Below, piece after piece: positions 862 through 20,399 of a stretch of DNA of 64,000 nucleotides. This stretch comes from a bacterium (GTDB lineage Bacteria > UBA10199 > 2-02-FULL-44-16 > JAAZCA01). Location of the stretch: contig CAXXGI010000003.1 of the NCBI GenBank assembly GCA_963674695.2, positions 32,001 through 96,000 on the forward strand. The letters run 5' to 3'. A model generated the notes under the pieces. The model worked only from the letters and a program-made list of their open reading frames with translations. It had not been told where the DNA came from and searched no databases. The first letter of the stretch is position 1. Every line of letters starts with the position of its first letter. The translations under genes were made by a program, and so were the position numbers.

Positions 862-1827
862 TCATTTCGATGTCTCGGCAATAGGTTCGTTTGCCGAGAG
901 GGAGCGTTGCGTCGAGGAGAGGTAGAAGAGGAGTCCGATGAGCGTGACCGGGATGATCTGGACGGCGTGATAGATGAGCGCGATGCTGAAGGCCATATCC
1001 TTTCCCACCCCCAGCCAGGTATAGGCCAACACGGCGGCCACTTCGAACGGCCCGATGTTGCTGGGCGCGGAAGGAACCATGATGGCCAGGTTGATCGCGA
1101 CGAAGACGAGGATCGGCACCCAGATGGCGACGTGAACGCCGAGGGCGAGCTGGCAGCAGAGGATCGTTCCCACCTGAAGCAGACAGTTGGCAATCGAGAG
1201 GGCGAGCGTGCCCAGGACGAGCCGCTTGCTCGTGAGCATACCCATGCCGGAGCCGAGCCTGTGGGCCAGGTGGCTCAAACGCCCGAGCGATGCGGCCGGG
1301 TCGGCGGTCGTGCGACGATGGTGCAGCAGGAGTCCCACGGCCAGGATCAGGATGATGACCATGACGATGGCGAAGATCGTCGTGCCGCGTTGGACCCAGA
1401 CCGGAAAGGTCGAATGCATGGAGAGCAGACCGAAGAGGATGAGGATGGCCAGCCCGTCGAAGAACTTGTCGAGCGCGGTGATCGAGGTGAGCATGGCGCG
1501 ACAGACGCCCTCCCACTTGCCGAGCAGATAGATCTTGAGGACGTCGCCGCCGCGCGCGGGCATGACGTTGTTCGCGGCCAGGCCGATCATCGTGGCCCGG
1601 AAGATGGAGCCGAAACGGGTGCGCTTCTGCGGCCACATCAACCACTGCCAGCGCACGGCCTTGAGCGCGATGACGGCGATGTTGAGCAGGCCGGCCAGAG
1701 CCAGATAGTGCCACTTGGCATCGGCAAGCTTCTCCCCGATCGAATGGAAGTCGAGCTTCATCGCCAGCGAGGTGAGCAGGGCGATGGAGATGAGCCATCC
1801 GAGGATGGTGAGGGCCTTTCGTTTCAT
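862..1827 (-). CDS. Lysylphosphatidylglycerol synthase TM / flippase-like (UPF0104) membrane protein
   Basis: Multiple TM segments; RWQWL, NNVMPARGGDVLK and PSAPSNIGPFE family motifs. Confidence 0.85.
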   Translation of the reverse strand: MKRKALTILGWLISIALLTSLAMKLDFHSIGEKLADAKWHYLALAGLLNIAVIALKAVRWQWLMWPQKRTRFGSIFRATMIGLAANNVMPARGGDVLKIYLLGKWEGVCRAMLTSITALDKFFDGLAILILFGLLSMHSTFPVWVQRGTTIFAIVMVIILILAVGLLLHHRRTTADPAASLGRLSHLAHRLGSGMGMLTSKRLVLGTLALSIANCLLQVGTILCCQLALGVHVAIWVPILVFVAINLAIMVPSAPSNIGPFEVAAVLAYTWLGVGKDMAFSIALIYHAVQIIPVTLIGLLFYLSSTQRSLSANEPIAETSK

Positions 1828-2645
1828 AGCGTCTTTCCATCGAGCAGCGTGCTGATGCGGACAAAGCGATAGCCGCGATCGCGATAACGCCGGATAATGT
1901 TCGACAGCGCTGCGACCGTAGCCTCACGGCTCTGGCAGGTCAAGCCTTCGTCGAGGCCATCGTGGAGCAGGAGGATCTCCGGATCGCCGAGGTTTTCCCC
2001 CAGCCGGGCGATGATCATCGAAGCATCGGCGCCATCGGTATCCCAGAGCCCACGGGTCCAGGGGATCGGCGTCAGCCCCAGCTCCTGACAGATGTGTCGC
2101 ACGCGCGCGGTCATGAAGCCATGCGGTGCGCGAAAGAGGTGCGGACGCGCTCCCGTGATGGATGCCAGGGCTTTCTGCGCCGAGGTGAGTTCCCCCTCGA
2201 TCGCCGCGCGGGAGCGATGCGCGAGGATGCGGTGCGAGACCGTGTGGTTGCCGACTTCGTGTCCGTCATCGATCATGCGTCGAACCAGTTCCGGATGGGC
2301 GCGCGCTTTATTCGCGAGGACGAAGAAGGTTGCCGCGACGCTTTCGGCCTTCAGGATATCGAGGATGCGTTCGGTCCAGGGTTCATCCGGCCCGTCGTCG
2401 AAGGTGAGCGCGACGAGCTGTTCGCCGCGATGGCGTCGTTGCATACGCTGCAACACCGGATCCCACTGGGGAATCAGGACGCGCGCGACGATGACCCCCG
2501 CGACGATCCAGGAGAGGGCGGCGATCCCGGCGAGCGCACGACAGGGGAGACAACTGCCGAAGATCGCCATCGCGATCAACAGCACCGCAACGCCGACGGC
2601 CGCAGCGACGGCGAGCACAACGCGCATTTTTATCCGCAGTGGCAT
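1824..2645 (-). CDS. Membrane-anchored NodB-type polysaccharide deacetylase
   Basis: ALTFDDGP, GNHTVSH, FRAPHG, LLLHDG motifs; two N-terminal TM helices. Confidence 0.9.
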   Translation of the reverse strand: MPLRIKMRVVLAVAAAVGVAVLLIAMAIFGSCLPCRALAGIAALSWIVAGVIVARVLIPQWDPVLQRMQRRHRGEQLVALTFDDGPDEPWTERILDILKAESVAATFFVLANKARAHPELVRRMIDDGHEVGNHTVSHRILAHRSRAAIEGELTSAQKALASITGARPHLFRAPHGFMTARVRHICQELGLTPIPWTRGLWDTDGADASMIIARLGENLGDPEILLLHDGLDEGLTCQSREATVAALSNIIRRYRDRGYRFVRISTLLDGKTL

Positions 2646-2662
2646 GAACTCCTTCTTTCGAT

Positions 2663-2885
2663 TGTCATTCCCGCGGGTCCAAATCTGTCATTCCCGCGGG
2701 TCCAAATCTGTCATTCCCGCGAAGGCGGGAATCTCGATTGTCACGAAACATCGAGATCCCCGCCTTCGCGGGGATGACAAAGCCAAATCCATCCACATCC
2801 CCGCCTTCGCGGGGATGACAAAGCCAAGTTCATCGAGATCCCCGCTGGAGCCTGTCCTGAGCGTAGCCGAAGGGCGGGGATGACA
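2663..2885. repeat. Cluster of dRS3/REP-like palindromes (GTCATTCCCGC...GCGGGAATC / GATCCCCGC...GCGGGGATGAC)
   Basis: Several head-to-tail and inverted copies, including a 23-bp tandem duplication TGTCATTCCCGCGGGTCCAAATC. Confidence 0.85.
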
Positions 2886-2894
2886 ACGCTCTGT

Positions 2895-4007
2895 TCATTC
2901 CCCCAAAATCTGCTCGTAATACTCCAGGTGCAGTTTCGTCACGCGTTTCCAGTCGTAGCGCTCCACGCGCAGGGCGGCGGTGGAGCCGAGTTTTGCGCGT
3001 AGTTCCTCGTCGTCGATCAGCCGCACGATGGCGGCTTCGAGCGCGGCCTCGTCCTGCGGCGGGACGTGCAGCGCGCTCTCCTCGTGCGTGGTCAGCTCGC
3101 GAAAGGCCTCGATGTCGGAGGCGATGATGGCGCGACCCGCGCTCATCCCCTCGATGATGGTGATGCCGAACGAGGCGATCGTGGGCGTGAAGACGAAGAC
3201 GTCGGCCGTGGCGAGATAGTCGGCGCGCTCATCCGTGGCGGTTCCGACGAAGACGATGTGTTCGCGAAGTGCGGCGGGGACGAGGTTTTCGAAATAGAAA
3301 CGCAGCGGCCCATCGCCCACGATGATGAGGCGCGCGTTCGGTCGTTTCGGATGCACGTGCGAAAAGGCGCGGATGAGCGTGTCCAGACCGTTGCGCGTGT
3401 CCGGCCGGCCCAGGAAGAGGACGTTCACGCGTCCGTCGTCGAAGCGAGGGATGCGCTTGCCCCTCGCCCACCAGCCCACGTCGACGCCGTTGGGGATGAC
3501 GTCGAAGTCGAGCCCCATATAATGGTGATTTTCTTCGGCACAGCAGCGCGAGACGGCGATGCGGCCGCTCAGCCGTTCGAGCATCGGTTTCACCGTTCCT
3601 CTGAAGAGACGGTAGTAGATGTCGTTGCCCATGCAGGTGTGGAAGGTGCCCACCATCGGCGCATTGGCTTGCATGATGGCGATATGCGGCAGGGCCGGGA
3701 AGGTCGGCGAGTGCAGATGCAACAGATCAAACTGTTCTTCGGCCAGGAGCCGTTTCATTTTTCGCGTGAGCCCGAAGCCATAGGTCGCCCGTCCACAGGA
3801 GCCGTTGGAGAAGACCGGAATGCTTCGGCCGATGGTGCGGATGCGGTCGGAGATGCTCGGTTCAATTCCCTTCGGAGCGAGTCCTCCACCGGTGATGATG
3901 CGAAAATCGTGTCCAAGATGCAGGAGCTCGCGCGCAAAGTGGTGGATATTCTCGGTGATGCCACCGATCGTGGGGGAGAAATATTCTGAGACGATGCCGA
4001 TTTTCAC
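2895..4007 (-). CDS. GT4 glycosyltransferase, PimA (phosphatidylinositol mannosyltransferase)-like
   Basis: IGIVSEYFSPTIGGI, IPVFSNGS, VGTFHT, GRIAVS, IPNGVD, FLGR, SFGITIIEGMSAG, ASDIEAFRE; GTG start chosen at 4007. Confidence 0.85.
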   Translation of the reverse strand: MKIGIVSEYFSPTIGGITENIHHFARELLHLGHDFRIITGGGLAPKGIEPSISDRIRTIGRSIPVFSNGSCGRATYGFGLTRKMKRLLAEEQFDLLHLHSPTFPALPHIAIMQANAPMVGTFHTCMGNDIYYRLFRGTVKPMLERLSGRIAVSRCCAEENHHYMGLDFDVIPNGVDVGWWARGKRIPRFDDGRVNVLFLGRPDTRNGLDTLIRAFSHVHPKRPNARLIIVGDGPLRFYFENLVPAALREHIVFVGTATDERADYLATADVFVFTPTIASFGITIIEGMSAGRAIIASDIEAFRELTTHEESALHVPPQDEAALEAAIVRLIDDEELRAKLGSTAALRVERYDWKRVTKLHLEYYEQILGE

Positions 4008-4177
4008 GCGAAAAGGGGGCTCCCGGTTGTGAAGCGCTGTATAAGCGAAAAACCAAAACGATTTTGGGCGTTTATACATCGTAGGGGGGTTTGTCAATCG
4101 AGCTGTCTCCGGGCCTGTTTTTCGAAGGGGGAAGAGGGGAAAAGGTGACTGAATTTCGAATGTTACCTATTTTTTCA

Positions 4178-4206
4178 TTGTCAATACAGACCGGCGCGTA
4201 TAGCAT
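4178..4206 (+). promoter_or_regulatory. Putative sigma70 promoter of the PAP2-MMPL-wzi operon
   Basis: TTGTCA-N17-TAGCAT; a minus-strand TTGACA at 4092-4097 may serve the divergent GT4 operon. Confidence 0.5.
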
Positions 4207-4218
4207 CCCGAAACTTTT

Positions 4219-5235
4219 ATGGCGACCCAAGAGACAACCACCTCCAACGCACTCGAGCGCAACGGCAAGCGGCTGACCGTGCCGGTCATCGTCGCGGGCA
4301 TCTGGGAGCGCATCCTCTATCGCATCGCAACGATGGGGTTCGACCTCATCATTATGATCGGCATGGCGTTGCTGCTCTCCGCATCGGTGCTGGCCATGGG
4401 GGGGCATGTGCGCCTCTTCCAGGCGACGGTGCTCATGCCTATCGGAATCATGGCCACCGCCATCGTCGTGACCATCGTGCGACACCGCGCCGATTGGCTC
4501 CTTCGCACGACTCGCCTCTTGCGCGATTGGGTCCCCTTTCTCTTCATCGTCTTCATCTATGAAAACCTGCGCGACGTGGCGGGCCAGGCCATGAGCTTCG
4601 ACATCGCCGGGGTGATGCAGGCCTGGGACGCCGCGATCTTTGGTATGCAGCCCACGATCTGGGCGCAGCGCATCCATATGCCCTGGCTCACCGACCTGAT
4701 GTCGGCATCCTATGCGTTGTGGTTCTTCCAGCCGCTCTTCATCATGTTTCTGCTCTCGCTGTGGGGAAAACGGGACGAGTTTCGGCACATGTCGCTCTGT
4801 CTGTCGCTCGTCTTTCTGATGGGGTTTCTGGGATATGTGCTTCTGCCCTGTTCGCCCCCGCGCTATTTCATCGAACACCTCTATACCGATCCGGTTCGGC
4901 TGCATGGGTTCTTCCTCTTCGAGCGCCTGCAGGGCACGTGGGATAATCTCTCCGCCATCAGCGGCGGGGCCTTTCCCAGTCTGCATGTCGGAAGCTCTGC
5001 CGTCGCGCTCATCTATGCCTGGCGCTATCGCCGTATGAACGGCACGATGCGCATCGTCTGGTACGCCTTCATTCCGCTCGTGACGAGCATCTGGTTTTCC
5101 ACCGTCTACCTTCGGCATCACTGGGTGATCGACATCATCGCGGGACTTTGCGTGGCGCTCGCAGGCTACTGGGGGGCGGGGGTGCTCGTGCGGGTGTGGG
5201 GACGCCTGCGCGATCGTTTCGGCCTCTCCTCGTAA
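4219..5235 (+). CDS. Aur1/inositol-phosphorylceramide-synthase-like PAP2 membrane protein
   Basis: PCSPPRY, AFPSLHVG and STVYLRHHWVIDII motifs; polytopic. Confidence 0.85.
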   Translation: MATQETTTSNALERNGKRLTVPVIVAGIWERILYRIATMGFDLIIMIGMALLLSASVLAMGGHVRLFQATVLMPIGIMATAIVVTIVRHRADWLLRTTRLLRDWVPFLFIVFIYENLRDVAGQAMSFDIAGVMQAWDAAIFGMQPTIWAQRIHMPWLTDLMSASYALWFFQPLFIMFLLSLWGKRDEFRHMSLCLSLVFLMGFLGYVLLPCSPPRYFIEHLYTDPVRLHGFFLFERLQGTWDNLSAISGGAFPSLHVGSSAVALIYAWRYRRMNGTMRIVWYAFIPLVTSIWFSTVYLRHHWVIDIIAGLCVALAGYWGAGVLVRVWGRLRDRFGLSS

Positions 5236-5244
5236 GCGAGCGAT

Positions 5245-7728
5245 ATGGGCACACGGATTCATCGATATATCTCCGGTTACCTCCGCTTCATCGGGCGCCA
5301 TCAGCTGGCGACGCTGCTCTTCTATCTGCTGAGTTTTTTCGCCTGTGCCGTTCTGGCCTCCACCCTCGCGCTCAAGAGCAATCTCAAAGAACTGCTTCCT
5401 CCCAACTATCAGAGCGTGCGCGAACTCAACCGCGTGCTCGAGCGCGTCGGGGGTGTGGGGTCGCTCATCGTTGCCGTCGAAGGCCCCGACGAGGAATCGA
5501 ACAAACGCTTTCTCGACGACCTGGCCGTGCGCCTGCAGGAGTTGCCGCAGGGACAGATTCGATATCTCAGTTACAAGGCCGACGACGTCCGACGCTTCTA
5601 CGAGGATCGCTTTCTCTATTATCTCGATATCGGTGATCTCCAGCGCTTTCATCGGCGTCTCAAGCAGCGCGTCGATTTTGAAAAGTACAAGCGCACGCCC
5701 TTCTATCTGGAGCTCGGCGACGAGGGGGATGAACCGGCACCGCTGCAGATCGCCGATATTCGCGAGAAGGTGGAACGCAAATACACGGCGCCCATCTCGA
5801 CGTACGAAGACTATTTCGGCGGCGAGTGGGGGCGATTGCTCATCATGATGATCCGTCCGTACGGGGCGACGATCACGCTCGACGGCTCGCGCAAGCTTGT
5901 CTCGACCGTCGAAGCGATAGTGGATGATCTCAAGCCCGCCTCGTATAACCCGCAGATGCGCGTGGGGCTGTGCGGGAACGTCAAGAGCACGATCGAGGAG
6001 TATGAGACGCTCAAACACGATATTCTCTCGACCGCGCTCATGTGTCTCGGGCTCGTGGCTGCGGTGATAGCGCTCTTTTTTCTCCGATTGCGCATCGTCT
6101 TTCTGCTCGGCGCAACGCTGCTCATCGCTGTAGCCTGGACCTTTGCGCTCACGCGAGGGGTGATCGGTTATCTCAATGCGCAGACCGCGTTTTTGGGGTC
6201 GATCATCGTCGGCACGGGGATCAACTACGGCATCATCCTGATGGCGCGCTATCTGGAGGAACGCAAGAAGGAGCGTTCGCCGCTCGAGTCGATGCAGCAT
6301 GCGCTCGAGATGACCGTCCGTCCGACATTCCTGGCGGCGGCGACCACCGCGGTCTCCTTCGGCGTGCTGCTCATCGCGCGCATTCGGGGGCTGTCGCAGT
6401 TTGGGTTCATCGGCGCCAGCGGTGTGATCTTCTGCTGGATTTCGACGATGCTCGTGCTCCCCGTGATGACGCTCGTCTCGGAGCGCATCCTGCGTTTCGT
6501 GCGTCCGCGCCAGACGCCAAAGCGCGAGAGCGCGCTCTTCGAGTTGGCCACGAAAATTGGGTCGCGATCTCCGGCCGTCATTCTGGTGTTGGCCTCCGTG
6601 GCGGCCATCGTTGCAACGGTGGTCGTCTGGCGATTCATACCAAATGCCATCGAATATGATTTTACGAAGATGCGCAATCAGGTCTCGGTGGCCAGTGGAA
6701 CCGAGGCGCTGGAGAAGCGCGTCTCCAAACTCTTTCGCAGTTCCATGACGCCGTCGGTCGTGCTGGTCGATTCCGCCGATGAGGGCCCCCAGGTCTGCCA
6801 GGCGGTGGAGCGGCAGAACCTCGATCTGCATCCGCAGGAGCGACGCGTTGGCAATTGCAGCTCCATCTTCGATTTGCTGCCGCCCGATCAGGAGGGCAAA
6901 CTTCCGATCATCGCTCGCATCGGGAGGCTCCTGAATCAGGATTGGGTGAACGATGTCTCCGGAGAGCTGCGCCGACAGATCGAGCGGATTCGCACCTCGA
7001 TCATTGGACGGGCGCTGACCATCGAGGACCTGCCCGATACGCTGGCGCGTCACTTCGAAGATCTGGACGGCAATCGCGGTGCGGTCGTCTTCATCAATCC
7101 GCGGCCGGGGATGCCCCTCTCCGACGGGCGCAACCTGATGCGCTATGCCGACACGATTCGCAATATCCAGCTGGAGGACGGGCGTATCCTGCATGCTGCC
7201 AGCGCCTCCATCATCTTCGCGGATCTCATCGAGATCATCAAGGTGGAGGCGCCCTACCTGACGATCGCCTCCTTTCTCGGCGTGTTGCTCTTCGTCCTCA
7301 TCATCCTGCGGCGTATGCGTCTGTCGCTCGAGCTGATCACAGCGCTGATCTGGGCCGTGCTCATGATGGTGGGGGTGGCTGCCTTCATGGACATCAAGAT
7401 CAACTTCTTCAACTTTATCGTCCTGCCACTGACCTTCGGTGTCGGCGTGGACTATGCCCTCAACATGGCCATGCGCATTCGGCAGGAGGGGCCGCAAGGC
7501 GTCTCGTCCGCTCTGAAGCGCACGGGGGGCGCGGTCGTGCTCTGTTCGATGACGACGATCATCGGTTACTTCGTGCTGACCACGGCCAACAATCAGGCGT
7601 TGGCGACCTTCGGCGTTGCGGCGGTGATCGGTGAGATCGCCTGCATCACCGCGGCGGTGTTGCTCTTGCCCGCACTCATCGTGATCGTGGATCGGGTCAG
7701 ACAGTTGAAAGTGAAACGTGAACGGTGA
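5245..7728 (+). CDS. MMPL/RND family lipid transporter
   Basis: Two TM bundles with GTGINYGI and GVGVDYAL motifs and two periplasmic loops. Confidence 0.9.
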   Translation: MGTRIHRYISGYLRFIGRHQLATLLFYLLSFFACAVLASTLALKSNLKELLPPNYQSVRELNRVLERVGGVGSLIVAVEGPDEESNKRFLDDLAVRLQELPQGQIRYLSYKADDVRRFYEDRFLYYLDIGDLQRFHRRLKQRVDFEKYKRTPFYLELGDEGDEPAPLQIADIREKVERKYTAPISTYEDYFGGEWGRLLIMMIRPYGATITLDGSRKLVSTVEAIVDDLKPASYNPQMRVGLCGNVKSTIEEYETLKHDILSTALMCLGLVAAVIALFFLRLRIVFLLGATLLIAVAWTFALTRGVIGYLNAQTAFLGSIIVGTGINYGIILMARYLEERKKERSPLESMQHALEMTVRPTFLAAATTAVSFGVLLIARIRGLSQFGFIGASGVIFCWISTMLVLPVMTLVSERILRFVRPRQTPKRESALFELATKIGSRSPAVILVLASVAAIVATVVVWRFIPNAIEYDFTKMRNQVSVASGTEALEKRVSKLFRSSMTPSVVLVDSADEGPQVCQAVERQNLDLHPQERRVGNCSSIFDLLPPDQEGKLPIIARIGRLLNQDWVNDVSGELRRQIERIRTSIIGRALTIEDLPDTLARHFEDLDGNRGAVVFINPRPGMPLSDGRNLMRYADTIRNIQLEDGRILHAASASIIFADLIEIIKVEAPYLTIASFLGVLLFVLIILRRMRLSLELITALIWAVLMMVGVAAFMDIKINFFNFIVLPLTFGVGVDYALNMAMRIRQEGPQGVSSALKRTGGAVVLCSMTTIIGYFVLTTANNQALATFGVAAVIGEIACITAAVLLLPALIVIVDRVRQLKVKRER

Positions 7729-7773
7729 ACGGTGAACGGTGAACGGTTCACCGTTCACGGTTCACGAGTCACG
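7718..7773. repeat. Inverted heptamer array (GTGAACG)x4 followed by GTTCACG-like x4
   Basis: Read directly; overlaps the MMPL stop codon. Confidence 0.9.
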
Positions 7774-7780
7774 GATCTTT

Positions 7781-9442: not shown

Positions 9443-9454
9443 ACGGGTTACAAG

Positions 9455-9531: not shown

Positions 9532-9542
9532 ACGATCTTCGG

Positions 9543-12904: not shown

Positions 12905-12973
12905 GTGTATTCTCCTTGAGTTGAGGATCGTTCGATTTTGAGCTTGATACCTTGGGGGGATTGTATTAGTCAA

Positions 12974-13001
12974 ATTAATAATATTACTCACATCTATTAA
13001 T
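12974..13001. promoter_or_regulatory. Candidate LysR operator in the AT-rich ino1/lysR intergenic region
   Basis: Inverted repeat ATTAATA-N14-TATTAAT between divergent genes. Confidence 0.4.
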
Positions 13002-13021
13002 AAGACTTATCGGTGGTGCCT

Positions 13022-13939
13022 ATGGAACTGCGACAACTCCATCTCTTTTGCGAGGTCTATCGCCAGCGGGGGTTTTCCGCGGCGGCCCGGCATCTGGGGC
13101 TGACCCAGTCGGCGGTCAGTCAGGCGGTGCGTGCACTCGAAACGGAATTGGGCGTATCGCTCTTCGACGCGAGCGACCGTTCGCGGCCGACGGCATCGGG
13201 CGATTATCTCTTTCGTGAGGGGGGGCTCATCCGCTCTCAGGTGGATGACCTCTGCAACGGTATTCGCACGGTCGGCGGCGTTGGCGGAGGCACGGTCAAG
13301 TTCGGCATGATCGATGTTGCCGCGACCCATCTCCTGCCGGGCGTTTTGCACGAGTTCAAGAAGGTCTCTCCCGACATCAAGATCGAGGCGGTGGTCAAGG
13401 CCAGCGGCGAACTGATGCTCATGGTCGAGCGCAACGAACTCGATTTTGCCATCGTCGTCACCAATGACATTCCCGATTCCCTGAAGCGATCCGAGATCTA
13501 TCATGACTCGATCGTGGCGATCGTGCCGGAGGGGAGTCCGCTTTCGCGATCGAAGATCGCCGTGACCGATCTTCGCGGCGAGCCGCTCATCCTCTATCCG
13601 CAGTCCTCCCATTCGCGGCAATTGATCGAAGCCGTCTTTCGCGAAGCCGGCATTACCCCCGCCGTCAGTATGGAGTTGCACTATCCGGCGGCGATCCTGG
13701 CGCTGGTGCAGGAGGGGATGGGTGTGGGCCTCATCTCGGAGCTCTCCGCTCGCGAACACGCCCTGGAGGGGCTCGTCATCGTTCCCGTTGCGGAGCTCGT
13801 TCAGGCGCGCCAAATCGGTATCGTCGCGCGCCGCAAGCGACGTTCCTCGCCTCAGGCGCAGGCGCTCATGGAGCGGGTCGGGCGTCTTTCGGGGTTGACC
13901 GGTCCCATCGGCAAGAAGGGGCGCTCCTCACGGAAATGA
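13022..13939 (+). CDS. LysR family transcriptional regulator
   Basis: MELRQL..F...GFSAAARHLGLTQSAVSQAVRALETELGVSLF HTH followed by a substrate-binding domain. Confidence 0.95.
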   Translation: MELRQLHLFCEVYRQRGFSAAARHLGLTQSAVSQAVRALETELGVSLFDASDRSRPTASGDYLFREGGLIRSQVDDLCNGIRTVGGVGGGTVKFGMIDVAATHLLPGVLHEFKKVSPDIKIEAVVKASGELMLMVERNELDFAIVVTNDIPDSLKRSEIYHDSIVAIVPEGSPLSRSKIAVTDLRGEPLILYPQSSHSRQLIEAVFREAGITPAVSMELHYPAAILALVQEGMGVGLISELSAREHALEGLVIVPVAELVQARQIGIVARRKRRSSPQAQALMERVGRLSGLTGPIGKKGRSSRK

Positions 13940-14047
13940 ACGGAGCATGAAAAAAGTGCGCAACTTTTTCCGCTGAGTTGCGATAAGGAGGGTGAAAGGA
14001 GCGGGCGACCGTTCGAACGTGCAATACAAAAAGGGAGCGAATACAAT

Positions 14048-14386
14048 ATGATACGCAAGATCCTCCAGGTTCTCTCCGGCGCCGATGCGGCAACCCCTGT
14101 TCCGATCGAAGAGGAACGCCGAACGGACAAGTCAAAAAAGCTCCTGGATGTGGCGCACGAGGCGATCATCGAGGAGGATGGCGAGGGGCTCAAGGGGCTC
14201 ATCCGTCTTGGCGGGCCAAATGCCGAACGGCAGCGTTTCAAGGGGAAGGTGCGCAAGAAGGTCTGGGACACGGTGAAGGATGAGTTTGGGTTTGCCGATG
14301 AGGCGATGGTGGATGAGATCACCGACCGCATCGACGATGTCGCCACAGCCGATCCGCGCTATGAAAAGCTCTTCGATTCAGAGTGA
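14048..14386 (+). CDS. Hypothetical protein
   Basis: GGGAG RBS, host-like codon usage, acidic helical sequence. Confidence 0.65.
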   Translation: MIRKILQVLSGADAATPVPIEEERRTDKSKKLLDVAHEAIIEEDGEGLKGLIRLGGPNAERQRFKGKVRKKVWDTVKDEFGFADEAMVDEITDRIDDVATADPRYEKLFDSE

Positions 14387-14397
14387 GTACAGCATGG

Positions 14398-14471
14398 TGT
14401 CATTCTGAGGGAGGAACGACCGAAGAATCTCATGTGTTTGCAGGGGATCCTTCATTGCACTCAGGATGACA
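14398..14471. repeat. REP-like palindrome (GTCATTCTGAG...CTCAGGATGAC)
   Basis: Inverted ends TGTCATTCTGAG / CTCAGGATGACA. Confidence 0.7.
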
Positions 14472-14663
14472 ACAACAGGAATGATCACTTTTTCTCGGGT
14501 CCGCTTGACGGGCCCGATTTTTTTTGTGCGCGGGCATCGACGTCCATCGCCGAGGATTGTTGGCGTGGTTGAGCTGCATCATGATGTAGAGGACGAGGTA
14601 GGCCGCGGTGTTGTAGACCACGAGGATGGAGCGCAGCAGAAATGATTTAAGTCGTTCGCCCAT
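14430..14663 (-). CDS. Possible small membrane protein
   Basis: GAGG RBS and one hydrophobic segment; follows the aldolase gene; C-terminus runs into a REP element. Confidence 0.4.
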   Translation of the reverse strand: MGERLKSFLLRSILVVYNTAAYLVLYIMMQLNHANNPRRWTSMPAHKKNRARQADPRKSDHSCCCHPECNEGSPANT

Positions 14664-14691
14664 GGGTGACGTCTAACCTCGCTTGAGGGAA

Positions 14692-15375
14692 TCAGTCCAG
14701 CAGATCGATCAGCGTCTGCGAGATCTGTTGGCCGAGTTTGCGTGCCTGCTTGGTCAGTTTTCTCAGCTCGGTCGTCGTCATCGGTTCGATCGAGCCCATG
14801 GAGCTGACCAGATAGGCCACGCGCGCGATGTGTTCCAAGTGTTCCAGACGGTTGAAGGCGTCCTGCAGGTCGTCGCCCAACACGAGTACGCCGTGGCGCT
14901 CGAGCAGGAAGGCGCTGTGCTTTTCCAGAACGGGGCGCAGAACATCAGCCATCTCGTCCGTTCCCGGCGTGGCATACGGCACCGATGGAACCGAGCCGAT
15001 ATAGATGGCCAGCTCCGGCAGCAGCATCTCCGTGAGCGAGATGCCCGCGAGCGAGCAGGCCAGACAGTAGTGCGGATGGGCGTGTACGGCCGCCGTGATG
15101 TCTTGGCGCCGACGATAGACGGCGCGATGCATGGCGATCTCGGACGAGGGGGTCTGCGCGGAATCGCGCGGATTGCCGTCGGCATCGCAGGCGACGATCA
15201 TGTCGGCGGTGACGGCATCCTTGCGCGTCGCTCTCGGCGTGATGAGAAAACCGTCCCCGTCGCGCACCGAGACGTTTCCGGAGGTGGCCACGAGGTAGTT
15301 CTTCTCACAGAGCCGATGGCAGACATCGGCCATCGACTCACGCGTATCCGTTTTCCATGTGCGTACATTCATCAT
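14692..15375 (-). CDS. Class II aldolase/adducin family protein
   Basis: SGNVSVR, LITP, PSSEIAMH, VHAHP, LLERHG metal-binding motifs. Confidence 0.9.
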   Translation of the reverse strand: MMNVRTWKTDTRESMADVCHRLCEKNYLVATSGNVSVRDGDGFLITPRATRKDAVTADMIVACDADGNPRDSAQTPSSEIAMHRAVYRRRQDITAAVHAHPHYCLACSLAGISLTEMLLPELAIYIGSVPSVPYATPGTDEMADVLRPVLEKHSAFLLERHGVLVLGDDLQDAFNRLEHLEHIARVAYLVSSMGSIEPMTTTELRKLTKQARKLGQQISQTLIDLLD

Positions 15376-15403
15376 ACGAGTCACGAGTTACGAGTCAGGG
15401 CAA

Positions 15404-16420
15404 TCACACTTGTTCGATGAGCTCCTCTTCCTCCCAGACGCGTTTGCGATCGTGCGCTCCCAAAAAGAGCAGCCCCAGCATAATCCAGAAGGCCGCGCGC
15501 ATGCGCTTGGCGATCTGAATCGTGATGCCGATCGAGGGATCCAGGTGCAGCAGGTAGAGCGTGCCGCTGTAGGCGCCTTCCATGACGCCAATCGCGCCCG
15601 GCACGAAGGTGAAGACCGCATTGATCACGGGGGCGAGTGCGGTCAGCATCAGGGCGGCGAAGAGCGTGAAATCATCCGAGCAGATGCGGCCGACCGCATA
15701 GATCTCGATGACGCCCAGCAGACGCCCCACGATATGACAGGCCAGGGCGATGAGAAAGCCGCGGTGGCTCTCGTTGTAGAAATCGACGATATGCGTGTCC
15801 AGTTCCGTGAAGCGCTTCACCGTCTTTTCTGAGAACTCGCGTTTGATGCCGATGCGACGACAGGCGTTGAGCAACAGGCCGAACAGCCCGCGCCGTTGGT
15901 GGATGAGGATGAACGTCAGAAACGCGGCCGAGACGACGAGCGCGATCGGAACGCCGTAGGTGATATTGGCCGAGAGTTCGTCGAAGGTGAGGAAGGCGAC
16001 GCTGATGCCGAGGATCACGACGATGAGGATCGCCGCGCTGTGCAGCGTGCGGTCGACGACCACGGAGGCCGCGCCCTCGGAGACGGGAAAGTTTTTGCGC
16101 AACAGATAGATGCGCATCGGATCGCCGCCGATGAAGTTGGCGGGGGTGAGCGTGTTGACCGCTTCGCCCGCGATCTTGATGCGGAAGAGCTCCCAGAATC
16201 GGATGCCGTCTCTCAACCGATGGAGGAACTGCATCCAGGCCTCGGTGTAGAGCATGTACCAGCACAATCCGATGGTGAGGATGGGGATAAAGCGCCACCC
16301 GATCGTCCGAATGTTGGCGACGATCGTGTCGACGCCGATCTTGCGGACGATGAACACCAACAGGATGGCGCCGATGACCAGGGATACGCCCCGAAGCATG
16401 AAACTGAGTTTTTTCTTCAT
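15404..16420 (-). CDS. Lysylphosphatidylglycerol synthase TM / flippase-like protein
   Basis: GEAVNTLTPANFIGGDPMR, VVDR and FVPGAIGVMEG motifs; polytopic. Confidence 0.85.
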   Translation of the reverse strand: MKKKLSFMLRGVSLVIGAILLVFIVRKIGVDTIVANIRTIGWRFIPILTIGLCWYMLYTEAWMQFLHRLRDGIRFWELFRIKIAGEAVNTLTPANFIGGDPMRIYLLRKNFPVSEGAASVVVDRTLHSAAILIVVILGISVAFLTFDELSANITYGVPIALVVSAAFLTFILIHQRRGLFGLLLNACRRIGIKREFSEKTVKRFTELDTHIVDFYNESHRGFLIALACHIVGRLLGVIEIYAVGRICSDDFTLFAALMLTALAPVINAVFTFVPGAIGVMEGAYSGTLYLLHLDPSIGITIQIAKRMRAAFWIMLGLLFLGAHDRKRVWEEEELIEQV

Positions 16421-17151
16421 ACGCAAAAATCCTGTTCACGGTGAAGGGTTGTTTCCGCCAGGGCGCGATCTTCTGGCGTATCCACCTCGAGCCACCGTAG
16501 CCCAGAGACGTTACAGATGGTGATCGGTCGGCCTTGGCGCGCCAGCCAGCCCAGGACCCATTCCACGGAGGCCGCATCGCCTTCTTCGCGTCGGGTCGCC
16601 GCAACCGCTTCGCGATATTCCGCGAGACGATCTGCGGTGCAGGCGGTCATGCCGATGTAGCCGCCGTCGAAATCGGTCAGCGTCTTGCGAATGCGCGCAA
16701 GCGTCCCGTCGGGATGACGCTTGATCTTCATGTCATCCGCTCCGAGCTCGCGGTCGAAATCGCAGATCGCGGTGAGGCCTTTGCGTTCGTCTAGCACCCG
16801 CGCGATCATGCGGCGCGGATAGATGTGGTCGACGTTCATGAGCAGAAAGTCGCCCTGAATGTGGGGCAGCGCGGCTTCGATGGAACGGATGCTGCCGTCC
16901 CGAAAGTGCGGGTTCTGCACGATGGTTGCCTTCGGATAGTGTTCCTTCAGGAAGGCCGCGAAGACCTCGTGCTGATAACCGGTGACGACCACGTGTTCGC
17001 TCACGTCGGGGTGTTCGGTGGCGTCAAAGACGCGCCGGATCAGCTCCCGATCCGCCACGGGGACCATCGCCTTAGGGTGGTTTTGCGTCAGTTCGCCCAG
17101 GCGGCTGCCGAGCCCTGCGGCCAAGATGACGATCTGTACGGGTTCTGTCAC
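16417..17151 (-). CDS. NTP transferase (inositol-1-phosphate/phosphocholine cytidylyltransferase-like)
   Basis: ILAAGLGSRL..PK, GGYIG and WLEVDTPED motifs; GTG start after AGGAGG. Confidence 0.85.
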   Translation of the reverse strand: MTEPVQIVILAAGLGSRLGELTQNHPKAMVPVADRELIRRVFDATEHPDVSEHVVVTGYQHEVFAAFLKEHYPKATIVQNPHFRDGSIRSIEAALPHIQGDFLLMNVDHIYPRRMIARVLDERKGLTAICDFDRELGADDMKIKRHPDGTLARIRKTLTDFDGGYIGMTACTADRLAEYREAVAATRREEGDAASVEWVLGWLARQGRPITICNVSGLRWLEVDTPEDRALAETTLHREQDFCV

Positions 17152-17167
17152 GACGGGTTCTCCTCCT

Positions 17168-17812
17168 CTACACATGGGCCTTGAGCTCCGCCAGGTGCGT
17201 GATGATCAGCGCCTGCGGGAATGCGGCATGGAAGTCTGTGCGGCTGAAGGTGCCTTCCTTGCCGATGAAGTCGATGCCGAAATCGGAGGCGCGTTCGCCG
17301 TCCTTGAGCGAGTCGCCGACAAAGGTGATGGCCGCGCGGTCGACGCCGAGCGCTTCCTGAATGTGGTAAAAGTGATCCGCCCCTTTGGCGAAGTTCGGCT
17401 TGAATCCGAGGGTCAGGTCGAAGGGGATGCCCGCCTGCGCGACGAATTGATCGACCAGGTGCTGAAAGTTGTTCGAGGAGACGGCGGTCTTGATGCCGTG
17501 TTCGCGCAAAAAGACGATCGTTTCGATGACATCATCGAAGAGTGGTTCGTCGAAGTAGCCGTCGAGTTTCTCCGCTTCGAATTCCTCGGCGGCGCGATCG
17601 TTGAGCGCGTGCCCGGGGAAGATGACTTCGAGCTGCTGAAAGAAGGGGATGCCCGATGTCTCGAGGTAGCGTCGGCGCGCCGTCTCCGCGTCGATGTCGA
17701 AGTGGCGCGGCATCACCTTCGCGGCGACGTCGGCGAATGCGCTCATCGAATCGACGATCGTTCCGTCAAAGTCGAAGGCGACCACAGATTTTCCTTTCAA
17801 TCGTTTCGTCAT
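17168..17812 (-). CDS. HAD family phosphatase
   Basis: FDFDGTIVDS motif I, VSSN, FVGDSLKD motif IV. Confidence 0.9.
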   Translation of the reverse strand: MTKRLKGKSVVAFDFDGTIVDSMSAFADVAAKVMPRHFDIDAETARRRYLETSGIPFFQQLEVIFPGHALNDRAAEEFEAEKLDGYFDEPLFDDVIETIVFLREHGIKTAVSSNNFQHLVDQFVAQAGIPFDLTLGFKPNFAKGADHFYHIQEALGVDRAAITFVGDSLKDGERASDFGIDFIGKEGTFSRTDFHAAFPQALIITHLAELKAHV

Positions 17813-17813
17813 G

Positions 17814-19163
17814 TCAGGCTGATTCTCCCATCTTGGCCCCTGCCGAAGCCGGTGCTGTTGCATCCGCCTTCTTTCGCATCGTCTGCGCGTTCAGATAGGT
17901 GAGTATGATCGCCCCGAAGGTGGTTCCGATTGCGGAGATGAAGAGCCATGAATACAGGACGCCGAAGATCGCGAAACAGAGAAACATAAACGAGAAGACG
18001 TCTTTCTTCAGCGTGTATTTTCCGTATTTGATGAAGAGGATGAGCCAGCGCGGCTGACCCGTCAGGTGCTGCAAAAATTCTTTGTCGTAGGTGACCAGGC
18101 TCGCCGACTGCGTGTGCTGTTTGAGATAGCGAACCATCCAGAAGAGCGTGATGCCTGCCGTGACGATGAGCCACCCACCCACGAGGAAGGCGATGGGCGA
18201 GTGCGTGTGGCGCCAGTAGCCGGCGATCATGCCGATGATGAAACTGGCCAGCGAGAGGTTGTCGCAGAGCGTGTCGGCGTACTGGCCGAACTTACTCTCG
18301 CGGAAGGTCAGTTTGGCCACCTCGCCGTCGCAGCCGTCCACGATGGAGGCGATCTGAAAGAGGATCGCGCCGAGCAGGATCATGTCGTAGCTGTGGCCGT
18401 CGGCGACGAAGACGCCGGAGAAGATGCCGATGATGATGTTCACACCGGTGATGACGTTCGGGCTGATCCAGAGCTTGGCGAGGATGAGGCTGGCTGGCAG
18501 CGAGATGCGCTTGTTGATGTAGCGAGCGACGGGGCCCGACGTGCTGTGGCGGATCGCCTCGGAGAGGTGTTTTTCCGCCACCATGCGATCCTGTGGCTTC
18601 GCGAGGAGAAAGGTGTTCATCTCCGCCGGTTTCTGAACGACGCGCGTCGTCGTGATGTCGAGGAGGTGATTCAGGCAGCTCTCGATCGAGCGCGGGCGTG
18701 CCTCGGCGAATGCCTCCAGCGCCATCCAGGCCGGGCGCGTGACCGCATAGATTGGGAGCGGATGCACGCCTTCGCGGCAGAGCAGCATGCCCTTTCCGGC
18801 GAGCGCCTCTTTTCGGAGCAGGCGCGCCAGCTCCTTTTCGAACAGGAGGTTGGCGTTGATCAGCAGCGTCTTCTCCCCCAGGGTTTCGCCGATGGTGCGG
18901 ACGATCTCGGGGCTGACGCGATAGGGTTCGTCGTAGGTGATGATGTCGATCGTCGGCAGGCGGCTCGGTCGATAGCGCAGCAGAAACCGCGCGATCTGCT
19001 CGCGTTGGGTCTGCGCGATGAGCAGCGTGCAGCGTTCAACGCCCGCCCGGGCCAGCGTCATGATGCCGCGGACGATGAGCGGCACGCCCGCCACCTTGCG
19101 GGTTGCCATCACCATGGCCTCGGGGGTGTCCGAGGGGACGTAGAGAACCGCTTCGGTCTTCAT
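17814..19163 (-). CDS. CDP-alcohol phosphatidyltransferase with an N-terminal degenerate NTP-transferase-like domain
   Basis: SPNVIT and DGCDGEVAK...SKFGQYADTLCD signature; N-terminal KVAGVPLI segment. Confidence 0.9.
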   Translation of the reverse strand: MKTEAVLYVPSDTPEAMVMATRKVAGVPLIVRGIMTLARAGVERCTLLIAQTQREQIARFLLRYRPSRLPTIDIITYDEPYRVSPEIVRTIGETLGEKTLLINANLLFEKELARLLRKEALAGKGMLLCREGVHPLPIYAVTRPAWMALEAFAEARPRSIESCLNHLLDITTTRVVQKPAEMNTFLLAKPQDRMVAEKHLSEAIRHSTSGPVARYINKRISLPASLILAKLWISPNVITGVNIIIGIFSGVFVADGHSYDMILLGAILFQIASIVDGCDGEVAKLTFRESKFGQYADTLCDNLSLASFIIGMIAGYWRHTHSPIAFLVGGWLIVTAGITLFWMVRYLKQHTQSASLVTYDKEFLQHLTGQPRWLILFIKYGKYTLKKDVFSFMFLCFAIFGVLYSWLFISAIGTTFGAIILTYLNAQTMRKKADATAPASAGAKMGESA

Positions 19164-19445
19164 GCGAAAAACCTACCGTGGATGAAAAAAAACCGCCGGA
19201 TGACGCGCATCGGTCGGCCCGATAGACAGCAAAGTTGCTAGTGACTATCAAGATTTGCCGATGGCTGTAAAGGAAATTCCAGGGCGGATTTGTGAGTGAA
19301 AACGAGGGGATAGCAATCTGTCCGGTTTCTGCGGGGGCTTGACGCCACTCCCCATCCGTGGTAGCGGAGTCCACCTTTTTTTCACGATATCAAGCACTTG
19401 GAATGTTTTCCCTTCGATGCCCTCGCGTGTCGAGACTGAGGATTC

Positions 19446-20399
19446 ATGAAACAGACATCGCCCCCACCCGTTCGCGGCATCTGGTATCTCACCCGCTGCA
19501 TCCTGCGAGGCCAGCCCAGACTCGTCAACCTCGAGATCACCAAGCGGTGCAATGCGCGCTGCACCTTCTGCAGTTGTTGGCAGGTGGGTAAGGGTGAGGA
19601 GCTGGCCGACTATAGCGACGTCATCAAGAAGTTCCGCCCGGTCGTCGTCTCGGTCTCCGGGGGGGAGCCGCTGTTGCGCAAGGACTACGCCGAGGTCCTG
19701 ACGAGCCTGCGACCCTATTGCCACTATCTGGGGATCATCACCAATGGCGTGCTTCTCAATGAGGAATCTGCGAAAAAGCTCGCGAGAGCGGGGGTCAACC
19801 ATACCAGCGTTTCGCTCGACTATCTCGGCACGCAGCACGATGAGGCGCGCAAGGTGTCCGGGCTCTACGATCACCTCGCCACGACCATTCCGCATCTGTC
19901 GAAGCTCGGGCATCGCATCGTTCTGAATACGATCATCATGGACTCGAACCTGGATGAGATCCTGCCGATCGCCTATCGCGCCAAGGAGTGGGGGGCCATG
20001 GTCTCCTTTTCGGCCTATTGCTCGCTCAAAAAGGATCAGGATGGCGAGATGGTGCGCAGTCGCCGCCATGCCCAGCTCGTGGGCATCTGCAGCGAACTCA
20101 AGGCGCTCAAACGCACCCTCGGCCACATTCGCAACTCCGATTACTATCTCGACCGCGTCCCGGGCTATTTTCGCGATGGCCGCATGGCCAACTGTCAGGC
20201 CGGGTACCGCTGGGTGCAGGTCACGCCCGACGGGTATGTCCAGCAGTGCTCGGAGCTGCCGCGCGTCTGTCACTACAGCGAATACGATCGCTCGAAGATC
20301 AAACCGTCCACCTGCGAGAAGTGCTGGTACACCTGTCGCGGCGAGGCGGAGGCGCCCTGGTACGAACCGCGCCGGATGCTCGAATTTATCAAGGCCTGA
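19446..20399 (+). CDS. Radical SAM protein with a SPASM/twitch domain
   Basis: CNARCTFC, SGGEPL, ITNG; C-terminal CQAG...PDGYVQQC...CEKCWYTC. Confidence 0.9.
   Translation: MKQTSPPPVRGIWYLTRCILRGQPRLVNLEITKRCNARCTFCSCWQVGKGEELADYSDVIKKFRPVVVSVSGGEPLLRKDYAEVLTSLRPYCHYLGIITNGVLLNEESAKKLARAGVNHTSVSLDYLGTQHDEARKVSGLYDHLATTIPHLSKLGHRIVLNTIIMDSNLDEILPIAYRAKEWGAMVSFSAYCSLKKDQDGEMVRSRRHAQLVGICSELKALKRTLGHIRNSDYYLDRVPGYFRDGRMANCQAGYRWVQVTPDGYVQQCSELPRVCHYSEYDRSKIKPSTCEKCWYTCRGEAEAPWYEPRRMLEFIKA

Follow-up and report, generated by a model that had tools for sequence, protein, structure and literature searches.

A conserved locus for the putative synthesis, glycosylation and export of inositol phospholipids in an uncultured bacterial phylum

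Introduction

Inositol lipids are considered rare in bacteria, and glycosylated inositol lipids are known mainly from actinobacteria. According to the accessible part of Heaver et al. 2022 (PMC9246714), a five-gene set was proposed for the inositol lipids seen by high-performance liquid chromatography-mass spectrometry (HPLC-MS) in Bacteroides vulgatus and Prevotella veroralis. A different type of operon encodes a synthase, a deacetylase and a flippase. Such operons, gpgSDF in Pseudomonas aeruginosa and hexSDF in Clostridioides difficile, make glucosaminyl lipids as described in the accessible part of the report (PMC12713373). Here, we analyze a stretch of 64,000 nucleotides (hereafter the window; positions 32,001 to 96,000 of contig CAXXGI010000003.1, assembly GCA_963674695.2) from a bacterium of the uncultured phylum UBA10199. 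An original prediction, made from the letters of the window, had read positions 862-20399 as a large inositol-lipid locus combining two bacterial routes with tailoring and export genes. With moderate confidence, we propose that the locus serves to synthesize an inositol phospholipid, decorate it with a sugar, flip it and export it, so that the product would be an exported glycosylated inositol phospholipid.

Results

A phylum-wide core and an accessory module

The locus consists of a phylum-wide core and an accessory module present in about a quarter of the relatives. Genes were called from open reading frames (ORFs) together with Pfam and NCBIfam profile scans on both strands of the window. 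Because the G+C content is ~60%, many spurious long ORFs overlap real genes. The scans recovered one coherent gene set at 862-20399. All genes named in the original prediction were found where it had placed them (ORFs, Pfam and NCBIfam), and a gene of the ChaN/Tiki superfamily that it had not listed was found as well. The proposed operons were borne out by overlaps and short spacers. In the core operon, the genes for a CDP-alcohol phosphotransferase (CDPOH), a HAD hydrolase, a nucleotidyltransferase (NTP), a flippase-like protein (flip2) and a class II aldolase overlap their neighbors or lie at most 19 nt apart. A second operon encodes a glycosyltransferase (GT4), a polysaccharide deacetylase (CE4) and, as its last gene, another flippase-like protein (flip1), with a 4-nt overlap between CE4 and flip1. 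The third consists of genes for a PAP2 phosphotransferase, an MMPL pump and a Wzi-family barrel, spaced 9-10 nt apart. GT4 and PAP2 are divergent across a spacer of 121 nt.

Conservation was assessed in the window genome and 60 relatives, which make up 61 genomes from 22 families of one class. The phylum is represented by 93 species genomes, all of that one class. As the 61 genomes are kin, the counts describe a pattern rather than test it. The CDP-alcohol transferase was matched in 59/61 genomes, myo-inositol-1-phosphate synthase (MIPS/Ino1) in 53/61 (E<=1e-40), the radical SAM enzyme in 42/61, PAP2 in 21/61 and the PimA-like GT4 in 18/61 (29 of the 93 species genomes of the phylum). PAP2 and GT4 occur together in 16 of the 61 genomes, PAP2 alone in five (one at a contig end), GT4 alone in two and neither in 38. 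Where both are present, they lie on one contig at most 6 kb apart in 15 of 16 genomes, spread over families f1, f2, f10, f18 and f22; in the f3 genome G019 they are on separate contigs.

Gene order is retained among close relatives and rearranged further away. Loci, genomes and proteins of relatives carry L, G and P numbers, respectively. The order CDPOH-HAD-NTP-flip2 is kept in 7/7 loci of related metagenome-assembled genomes (MAGs). The divergent arrangement of GT4 and PAP2-MMPL is kept in 4/4 further loci, which belong to four of the same genomes, variably with Wzi, ChaN, MIPS and LysR genes. Among four GT4-PAP2 loci, CE4 and flip1 follow GT4 in one, flip1 and an insertion sequence (IS) transposase in another, and neither in a third. 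In other families, the core reads as a radical SAM gene divergent from CDPOH-HAD-NTP-flip2-MIPS, in some cases followed by ChaN. The order of PAP2, MMPL, Wzi, GT4, flip1 and CE4 is shuffled in other families, and the genes are still neighbors. Accessory genes that are shuffled yet linked are the pattern expected of functional coupling. In G032 and G051, GT4 is linked to MIPS and ChaN although the core operon lies elsewhere. The gene grouping is more than chance, and the original prediction of a coherent inositol locus with tailoring and export genes, conserved together in relatives, was confirmed in this respect.

Core enzymes group with enzymes acting on inositol

The NTP protein (16417-17175, minus strand; NTP_transf_3, PF12804) resembles CTP:inositol-1-phosphate cytidylyltransferase (IPCT). 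Its best NCBIfam match is the N-terminal half of the IPCT/DIPPS model NF041135 (85.8 bits, cut-off 580). The best matches in the Protein Data Bank (PDB) are IPCT 2xme (58.9 bits, full length) and 4mnd, both of Archaeoglobus. LicC and phosphonate cytidylyltransferase score below IPCT in the PDB search. The GxGxR motif is present as AAGLGSRLG. CDPOH (17814-19163, minus strand; PF01066) matches the C-terminal half of NF041135 at 95 bits (cut-off 580), and its closest PDB sequences are AF2299 (67.8 bits) and IPCT/DIPPS (52.3 bits). The motif D276-x2-D279-G280-x2-A283-K284-x8-G293-x3-D297-x3-D301 is invariant in 29/29 aligned homologues, all 29 with a Lys where most family members carry Arg. The AlphaFold2 (AF2) model of CDPOH (pLDDT 88.5) has two domains, one nucleotidyltransferase-like and one a transmembrane CDP-alcohol transferase domain. 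Its top Foldseek match is 4mnd over 460 columns (TM 0.65/0.71), and residues 1-190 also match RmlA- and MurU-type nucleotidyltransferases. The N-terminal domain of CDPOH is without GxGxR; this motif sits in the separate NTP gene.

NTP and CDPOH are fused as one protein of 471-488 amino acids (aa) in other families of the phylum. Four such fusions match the IPCT/DIPPS model at 242-264 bits, near full length for one and, for the remaining three, over ~350 of 419 positions. The equivalog cut-off of 580 bits is missed by NTP, CDPOH and the fused relatives. The original prediction had raised the concern that the enzymes might group with non-inositol enzymes such as those of the LicC phosphocholine pathway. 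This concern is answered by the grouping with inositol enzymes, as NTP and CDPOH are nearest to IPCT and DIPPS/AF2299, with LicC scoring lower. In the metagenomic relative P0172, CDPOH is fused to an NTP_transf_3 domain (479 aa).

The HAD-IA hydrolase is of the phosphatase type (17168-17863, minus strand, likely start ATG at 17812; PF13419, PF00702) and carries a DxDGT motif. A PDB search with this protein returned only generic HAD proteins and spurious ubiquitin matches. CDPOH-HAD fusions of 651-678 aa occur in the metagenomic relatives P0154, P0216 and P0221, three among the 120 proteins listed. The flip2 gene (15404-16426, minus strand; PF03706, 111 bits) encodes an LPG_synthase_TM flippase-like protein similar to HpnL and BT_1521. 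It reaches 128.8 bits against the HpnL model TIGR03476 (cut-off 196), the best such match in the genome. The gene lies inside the operon in 7/7 close loci and in the relatives' loci L036-L039. In G034 (L040:2275-6023), flip2 overlaps by 4 nt a co-directional gene for a PlsB-like glycerol-3-phosphate acyltransferase of 913 residues. Divergent from these two genes are a fused NTP-CDPOH gene and a radical SAM gene. The fused IPCT/DIPPS-like genes of G027 and G053 are without a flippase-like neighbor in the 13-14 kb examined.

The operon ends with a gene of the class II aldolase/epimerase family (14692-15384, minus strand; PF00596, 164 bits). Its best NCBIfam match is 3-oxo-tetronate 4-phosphate decarboxylase at 124 bits (cut-off 250). 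The aldolase ends the core operon in 6/7 close loci and is missing in L012 and in the operons of other families. Its predicted membership in the operon therefore holds for the window's own family, to which it is confined, and not for other families, where MIPS occupies its place. MIPS (11582-12991, minus strand, likely start ATG at 12904; PF07994, 313.9 bits; PF01658, 108.5 bits) lies directly after flip2, inside the operon, in L012, L036, L037 and L038. It is at most 11 kb from CDPOH in 16 of the 52 genomes with both genes. In the window, MIPS is divergent from a LysR-type regulator gene (13013-13939, plus strand; PF00126, PF03466), which keeps this position beside MIPS in L011 and L022 and occurs in L010 as well. 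An ORF overlapping the end of the LysR gene (orf164, 13852-14346) was rejected as a gene, being of low complexity and without a family match.

A radical SAM enzyme is the most constant neighbor of CDPOH

The radical SAM gene (19446-20399, plus strand; PF04055) is divergent from CDPOH and carries the CX3CX2C motif (CNARCTFC). It is the most constant neighbor of CDPOH and no bystander. The gene lies at most 3 kb from CDPOH in 36 of the 42 genomes that have it. The divergent arrangement is kept in all five close loci that reach that far. In L040 and L041, the gene is a same-strand neighbor of the fused NTP-CDPOH gene, and L042 holds a weaker match of 22% identity. The enzyme belongs to an uncharacterized family. 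NCBIfam and PDB searches returned weak matches only, to SkfB, MoaA, BlsE and HpnH, and the ESM Atlas neighbors are unnamed radical SAM clusters together with HpnH and PTO1314. Since weak relatives (MoaA, BlsE and viperin-like models) act on nucleotides, the similarity suggests, without showing it, that the enzyme might act on CDP-inositol. To our knowledge, no described inositol pathway includes a radical SAM enzyme. A literature search of titles and abstract openings found no paper pairing di-myo-inositol with radical SAM enzymes.

The accessory module joins a PimA-like, an Aur1-like and export genes

The GT4 glycosyltransferase (2895-4097, minus strand; Pfam GT4/GT1 domains) is PimA-like over its full length. 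The form in the protein collection begins 6 codons inside the ORF (394 aa). Its best PDB match is PimA 2gej at 200 bits (E 4.9e-58, residues 30-399 against 20-385 of 2gej), and the best non-PimA match is 67 bits. The alignment of homologues covers 118 of the 120 proteins listed, with two fragments left out. H147, R225 and E310, the equivalents of PimA His118, Arg196 and Glu282, are kept in 118/118 homologues, and the Gly-rich loop (PimA Gly16 equivalent) is kept as well. Many homologues are labelled 'phosphatidylinositol alpha-mannosyltransferase' by public pipelines. Homologues of 43-44% identity occur in cultured Anaeromyxobacter; nothing was found in the literature search on phosphatidylinositol (PI) glycosyltransferases of this genus. 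Other models score lower, with 53.3 bits for the GlcN-PG synthase NF053787 (cut-off 480, so that the GpgS equivalog level is not reached) and 71.5 bits for the MGlcDAG synthase model. Given the PimA similarity and the linkage to inositol genes, PI is the likely acceptor of GT4.

Next in the operon, the NodB-type CE4 deacetylase (1824-2645, minus strand; PF01522, 131 bits) has NodB, PdaB and PgdA as best NCBIfam matches. The motifs TFDD81, HTVSH134 and LLH226 (HxxxH, LxH) are present, and one or two N-terminal hydrophobic segments form a membrane anchor. CE4 is next to GT4 in L022, L031 and L034. At the position of CE4 in L021 (6416-7636; genome G001/G006), between flip1 and GT4, lies an IS element encoding a DDE transposase with DUF4372. 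The flip1 protein (862-1827, minus strand; LPG_synthase_TM/UPF0104; PF03706, 161.6 bits; TIGR00374, 95.7 bits) has ~7 hydrophobic segments. Its orthologue adjoins GT4 in L021, L022, L032, L033 and L035.

The PAP2 protein (4219-5235, plus strand; PAP2_3, PF14378, 86 bits) is an Aur1-like phosphotransferase. Its sole PDB matches are the Aur1 chains 9ivc and 9vj3 (~27-28 bits). H255, H294 and D298 of Aur1 were found essential in a 2026 study by cryo-electron microscopy (cryo-EM) and mutagenesis (PMC13133130). The aligned H256, H301 and D305 of PAP2 are invariant in 9/9 orthologues, and Ser253 and His293 are also conserved in the comparison with Aur1. The sole NCBIfam match is the phosphoinositol dihydroceramide synthase model NF052609 (58.5 bits, cut-off 480). 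By homology, an exoplasmic orientation is predicted for the active site.

PAP2 is followed by a pump gene of the RND/MMPL type (5245-7728, plus strand; PF03176), an HpnN-like paralogue that scores 212 bits against the HpnN model TIGR03480 (cut-off 752) and also has BstA and HAE3 matches. The pump gene directly follows PAP2 in L020-L023, L032 and L033. The Wzi-family outer-membrane beta-barrel (7739-9442, plus strand; PF14052, 198.6 bits) has an N-terminal hydrophobic segment at 13-31, a signal peptide, and follows MMPL in L012, L021, L022, L023, L032 and L033. From family and linkage, we infer that the two form an inner- and outer-membrane export pair. A palindromic hairpin at 7715-7768 extends across the stop of MMPL and the start of Wzi, where symmetric weak Rfam matches fall on both strands; no credible Rfam match was found inside the locus. 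The ChaN/Tiki-superfamily protein (9659-11272, plus strand; PF04187, 76.8 bits) is without a signal peptide and cytoplasmic by sequence. The best Foldseek matches of its AF2 model (pLDDT 81.5) are ChaN 2g5g (E 4e-4), HopBA1 and RRSP, for the N-terminal half only. This fold search confirmed the superfamily and assigned no function. His, Asp and Glu positions are invariant among homologues, and the gene adjoins MIPS or Wzi in L012, L021, L022, L031, L035, L036 and L037.

Lipid genes elsewhere in the genome

The genome is 100% complete on three contigs (C1 to C3). A search for sequencing runs listed three DNA entries, all of one study, and none of RNA. No serine palmitoyltransferase (SPT) was found among its six PF00155 aminotransferase matches; the one alpha-oxoamine synthase is Kbl. 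The Kbl model matches at 642 bits (cut-off 460) and the SPT models at 243-324 bits (cut-offs 500-670). The kbl gene adjoins a gene for a Tdh-like zinc-dependent alcohol dehydrogenase. A sphingolipid product, which the original prediction had considered, is thus unlikely.

An 809-codon ORF outside the window (C1:908479-910905, locus L027) encodes, in one protein, a CDP-alcohol transferase (CDP-OH) domain and a type I phosphodiesterase/nucleotide pyrophosphatase domain. The three best NCBIfam matches of the CDP-OH domain are inositol-lipid synthases, all full length and all below cut-off: the phosphatidylinositol-phosphate synthase (PIPS) of BT_1523 type (150 bits, cut-off 350), archaetidylinositol-phosphate synthase (AIPS; 142, cut-off 180) and PIPS (130, cut-off 170). 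Homologues occur in 61/61 genomes, and 59/61 match the PIPS-like half, which is part of a fusion in some families and a separate protein in others. The phosphodiesterase domain could be a phosphatidylinositol-phosphate (PIP) phosphatase, and the fusion is by sequence a candidate one-protein PIP synthase and phosphatase. The other CDP-alcohol transferases of the genome are PgsA, a PgsA/ClsA-like protein and PssA. With the PIPS-like fusion present, the PimA-like and Aur1-like enzymes would be independent of the core operon for PI.

Hopanoid genes are also encoded. A true squalene-hopene cyclase (663 bits, C3:517146-519227), whose gene shc is found in 58/61 genomes, a true HpnH (412 bits, C2:249947-250888) and a better HpnN-like RND pump than MMPL (C2:67089-69434) stand apart from one another and from the inositol locus.

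Surroundings of the locus

The right border of the locus is real, since the sequence past 20.4 kb passes into an AbiEi/AbiEii stretch with two tRNA genes, and genes for type II secretion and Ruv proteins come next. The region at 20400-25700, probably an integrated island, has a lower G+C content (0.49-0.54). Besides ORFs that match no family, it encodes an AbiEi/AbiEii toxin-antitoxin pair (20965-22663). The low-G+C stretch ends at tRNA-Thr (25346-25419) and tRNA-Leu (25526-25609). A first secretion/pilus gene set at 29054-41984 encodes a secretin, GspE, GspF, pseudopilins and PilM/L/M-like proteins. A second set at 48683-62809 encodes a GspE/GspF pair, pseudopilins and PilM/N/O. RuvC, RuvA, RuvB and YebC are encoded between the two sets (42463-45550).

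Discussion

The pathway outlined here is a prediction as to all substrates, the core product being a lipid, the sugar, the PAP2 acceptor and the export destination; it builds on gene content, intact catalytic motifs, the closest characterized relatives and conserved linkage. In the core, MIPS would make inositol phosphate, and the IPCT-like NTP protein would activate it to CDP-inositol. CDPOH would then transfer phospho-inositol onto an alcohol, for which a membrane lipid, diacylglycerol for instance, is the most likely candidate. HAD might either strip a leftover phosphate, as from di-myo-inositol-phosphate phosphate (DIPP) or PIP, or supply diacylglycerol from phosphatidic acid in a lipin-like manner. 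The radical SAM enzyme might modify the head group or the CDP-activated precursor, and flip2 could move the lipid to the outer leaflet. In the accessory module, GT4 would add a sugar to PI on the cytoplasmic face, with PI that might be supplied by either the core or the PIPS-like fusion. CE4 could remove the acetyl group if the sugar is an N-acetyl-hexosamine, and flip1 may flip the glycolipid. The GT4-CE4-flip1 operon mirrors the synthase-deacetylase-flippase logic of gpgSDF, which favors an N-acetyl-hexosamine followed by de-acetylation. On the periplasmic face, PAP2 might move phospho-inositol from PI to a second acceptor with release of diacylglycerol. This acceptor would not be ceramide and is perhaps glycosyl-PI itself, much as yeast Ipt1 transfers phospho-inositol onto mannosyl inositol phosphorylceramide (MIPC). 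MMPL and Wzi would carry the product to the outer membrane.

The reading of the core product as a lipid is suggested by the constant flippase-like gene in the operon, by the overlap of flip2 with a PlsB-like acyltransferase gene in one family and by the transferase-HAD fusions. The gene set is also the same as the one tied to Bacteroidetes inositol lipids in the accessible part of Heaver et al. (PMC9246714).

Several points weigh against an exported glycosylated inositol phospholipid. The alternative route of Bacteroidetes is itself only proposed, and a literature search found no follow-up paper on it. The closest characterized relatives of NTP and CDPOH are enzymes for a soluble solute, and NTP, CDPOH, a phosphatase and MIPS are exactly the enzyme set for di-myo-inositol phosphate (DIP). 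Equivalog cut-offs are missed by NTP and CDPOH (580 bits) and by PAP2 and GT4 (480 bits each). As PIPS-like and IPCT/DIPPS-like enzymes coexist phylum-wide (59/61 genomes each), the core operon is probably not merely a redundant PI route. The Aur1-like enzyme is found in a genome where the SPT search found no ceramide synthesis. CE4 is inconstant, with no match found in L020, the IS element in its place in L021 and a weak match in L032. Finally, GT4 departs from PimA at the donor site. PimA Lys202 is replaced by Asn230 and Glu274 by Ala302 in 118/118 homologues, including those of cultured Anaeromyxobacter. In PimA, Lys202 contacts the pyrophosphate and Glu274 the sugar, according to the accessible parts of two reports (PMC9883506, PMC4506291), and mutation of the equivalent residues cripples another GT4 (PMC9883506, accessible part). 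The donor is therefore possibly not GDP-mannose, and judging from these residues even the chemistry may differ from that of PimA.

An alternative that we regard as possible, if rather unlikely, is that the core operon makes a soluble inositol phosphodiester, for example DIP or glycero-phospho-inositol, which the radical SAM enzyme might alter, and that the accessory module alone handles lipids with PI from the PIPS-like fusion. IPCT and IPCT/DIPPS are the closest characterized relatives, the fused forms of other families match the IPCT/DIPPS model at the scores given above, and HAD fits the missing DIPP phosphatase step. PI needs no core operon either, given a PIPS-like enzyme in this genome and in 59/61 genomes, and the fused genes of G027 and G053 have no flippase-like gene within their 13-14 kb. 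Yet DIP is a solute of hyperthermophiles, whereas the MAG titles of the relatives point to groundwater-type bacteria. A soluble product also sits poorly with a flippase-like protein inside the operon in 7/7 close loci and four other families, with the acyltransferase overlap in G034, and with the same gene set accompanying inositol lipids in Bacteroidetes without the PIPS route, as far as the accessible part of the source goes (PMC9246714). The original prediction had named soluble DIP synthesis alone as an outcome that would speak against it. The core enzymes are indeed nearest to DIP enzymes, and the flippase-like gene in the operon speaks for a lipid.

Other alternatives concern the lipid itself. 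GT4-CE4-flip1 might be a system of the gpgSDF/hexSDF type that makes a glucosaminyl derivative of phosphatidylglycerol (PG) or glycosyl-diacylglycerol and is a mere neighbor of the inositol genes. The three-gene architecture is alike, and GT4 matches the GlcN-PG synthase (53 bits) and MGlcDAG synthase (71.5 bits) models. However, the former score compares with a cut-off of 480, while PimA reaches 200 bits over its full length, and in 15/16 genomes GT4 is inherited together with the Aur1-like gene, from which it is divergent. In G032 and G051, where the core operon is elsewhere, MIPS and ChaN are still linked to GT4, so that we consider this explanation improbable. Still less probable is a hopanoid product, in which CDPOH or the Aur1-like enzyme would place phospho-inositol on a hopanoid polyol, and flip2, MMPL and the radical SAM enzyme would handle the inositol-phosphate hopanoid. 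The genome does encode a true squalene-hopene cyclase and HpnH, with shc in 58/61 genomes; flip2 is its best HpnL-like gene, MMPL is HpnN-like and the radical SAM enzyme weakly HpnH-like. Yet shc and hpnH, which are hundreds of kb away or on other contigs, have no inositol genes as neighbors, and a better HpnN-like pump is encoded elsewhere. The HpnL model also matches in Bacteroides thetaiotaomicron, used as a control, so that HpnL resemblance is a family trait; being phylum-wide, shc does not follow the distribution of PAP2 or GT4. If ceramide were the substrate of the Aur1-like enzyme, as in Bacteroides thetaiotaomicron, the product would be an inositol sphingolipid, a reading consistent with the conserved Aur1 triad and with the only NCBIfam match of PAP2 being the phosphoinositol dihydroceramide synthase model. 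That match has 58 bits against a cut-off of 480, though, and no SPT was found. The sole alpha-oxoamine synthase, beside a Tdh-like gene, is Kbl, which passes the Kbl cut-off and falls far short of the three SPT cut-offs, and we consider a sphingolipid extremely unlikely.

The proposed glycosylated inositol phospholipid allows for a more far-reaching version, which we regard as a speculation with a low chance of being right as a whole. The uncultured phylum would make a bacterial counterpart of a lipid of the glycosylphosphatidylinositol (GPI) anchor or mannosyl di-inositol phosphorylceramide (M(IP)2C) type, plus an altered CDP-cyclitol head group. GT4 with its remodelled donor site, CE4 and an MprF-like flippase would turn PI into hexosaminyl-PI and flip it, by convergence on the PIG-A, PIG-L and flipping steps of eukaryotes. 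The Aur1/Ipt1-like enzyme would add a second phospho-inositol in the periplasm, and the RND pump and Wzi would install the product. The IPCT/DIPPS-like enzyme and the radical SAM enzyme would make a CDP-cyclitol head group of no described lipid.

A whole uncultured phylum with inositol synthesis and two different inositol-phosphate transferases suggests a wider distribution of inositol lipids among bacteria. If the proposed pathway is true, glyco-inositol-phospholipids reach the outer membrane of Gram-negative bacteria. With its compact gene set, the locus would allow the CDP-inositol ('Kennedy-like') route, as proposed for gut Bacteroidetes, to be put to the test. The radical SAM partner, the lost donor residues of GT4 and an Aur1-like enzyme where no ceramide pathway was found pose puzzles for enzymology. 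The GT4 homologues of cultured Anaeromyxobacter offer an entry point for genetics.

Comparison with known systems

In a literature search, the gene combination was not found described. The same holds for the radical SAM-bearing phylum-wide core, the coexistence with a PIPS-like enzyme and the altered donor site of a PimA-like enzyme. The Heaver-type cluster, as far as the accessible part of that article shows it, shares with this locus MIPS, an NTP transferase, a CDP-alcohol transferase, a HAD protein and an LPG-synthase-like (BT_1521-like) protein, compared as a gene set. Transferase-HAD fusions occur in both, and CDPOH follows the motif DX2DGX2AR...GX3DX3D with Lys for Arg. The window comes from another phylum, and here the gene set coexists with a PIPS-like enzyme rather than replacing PIPS. 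The constant radical SAM partner and the dead nucleotidyltransferase-like domain on the transferase are found only here. So is the joining of PimA-like, Aur1-like, CE4, MMPL and Wzi genes, in a genome with no sphingolipid starter found. Of the two routes that the original prediction saw combined, the NTP/CDP-alcohol/HAD module is present as a whole. The Bacteroides thetaiotaomicron route is represented in the locus by its Aur1-like piece only, with a PIPS-like candidate elsewhere (C1, 908-911 kb); the Aur1-like gene alone is no second route.

Archaeoglobus fulgidus IPCT/DIPPS (4mnd, 2xme) and its paralogue AF2299 (4o6m) are the best sequence and fold matches of NTP and CDPOH. IPCT/DIPPS and CDPOH share a cytosolic nucleotidyltransferase-like domain, a six-helix transferase domain and the DxxDGxxA(R/K)...G...D...D motif. 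Unlike IPCT/DIPPS, CDPOH has an N-terminal domain without GxGxR next to a separate nucleotidyltransferase gene with an active motif, and always a Lys (29/29). The operon here adds a HAD hydrolase, a flippase-like protein and a radical SAM enzyme. Aur1/inositol phosphorylceramide (IPC) synthase and Bacteroides BT_1522 have the PAP2_3 fold family as well as a His-His-Asp triad in common with PAP2. The PAP2 protein differs in its low scores (~27-28 bits to Aur1, 58 bits to the BT_1522-type model), in a genome with no ceramide pathway found, and in its operon partners, the RND pump and the Wzi barrel.

Mycobacterial PimA (2gej, 4n9w), a GDP-mannose:phosphatidylinositol alpha-mannosyltransferase, is alike to GT4 over the full length (200 bits). 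GT4 differs in the exchanges of Lys202 to Asn and Glu274 to Ala and in its Gram-negative host. The mycobacterial pimA operon context comprises pgsA1 and patA, whereas GT4 is paired with CE4 and a flippase-like gene. In gpgSDF and hexSDF, as in the window, a GT4, a deacetylase and a UPF0104/LPG_synthase_TM gene lie on one strand, to the extent that the accessible part of the report covers them (PMC12713373). GpgD belongs to COG3233 according to the same part, in contrast to the membrane-anchored CE4/NodB protein here, and GT4 is PimA-like rather than GpgS-like, with PI rather than PG or a glycolipid as the likely acceptor. The parts of the locus are of known kinds, namely a Heaver-type cluster, IPCT/DIPPS, PimA, Aur1, a synthase-deacetylase-flippase operon and an HpnN-like RND pump.

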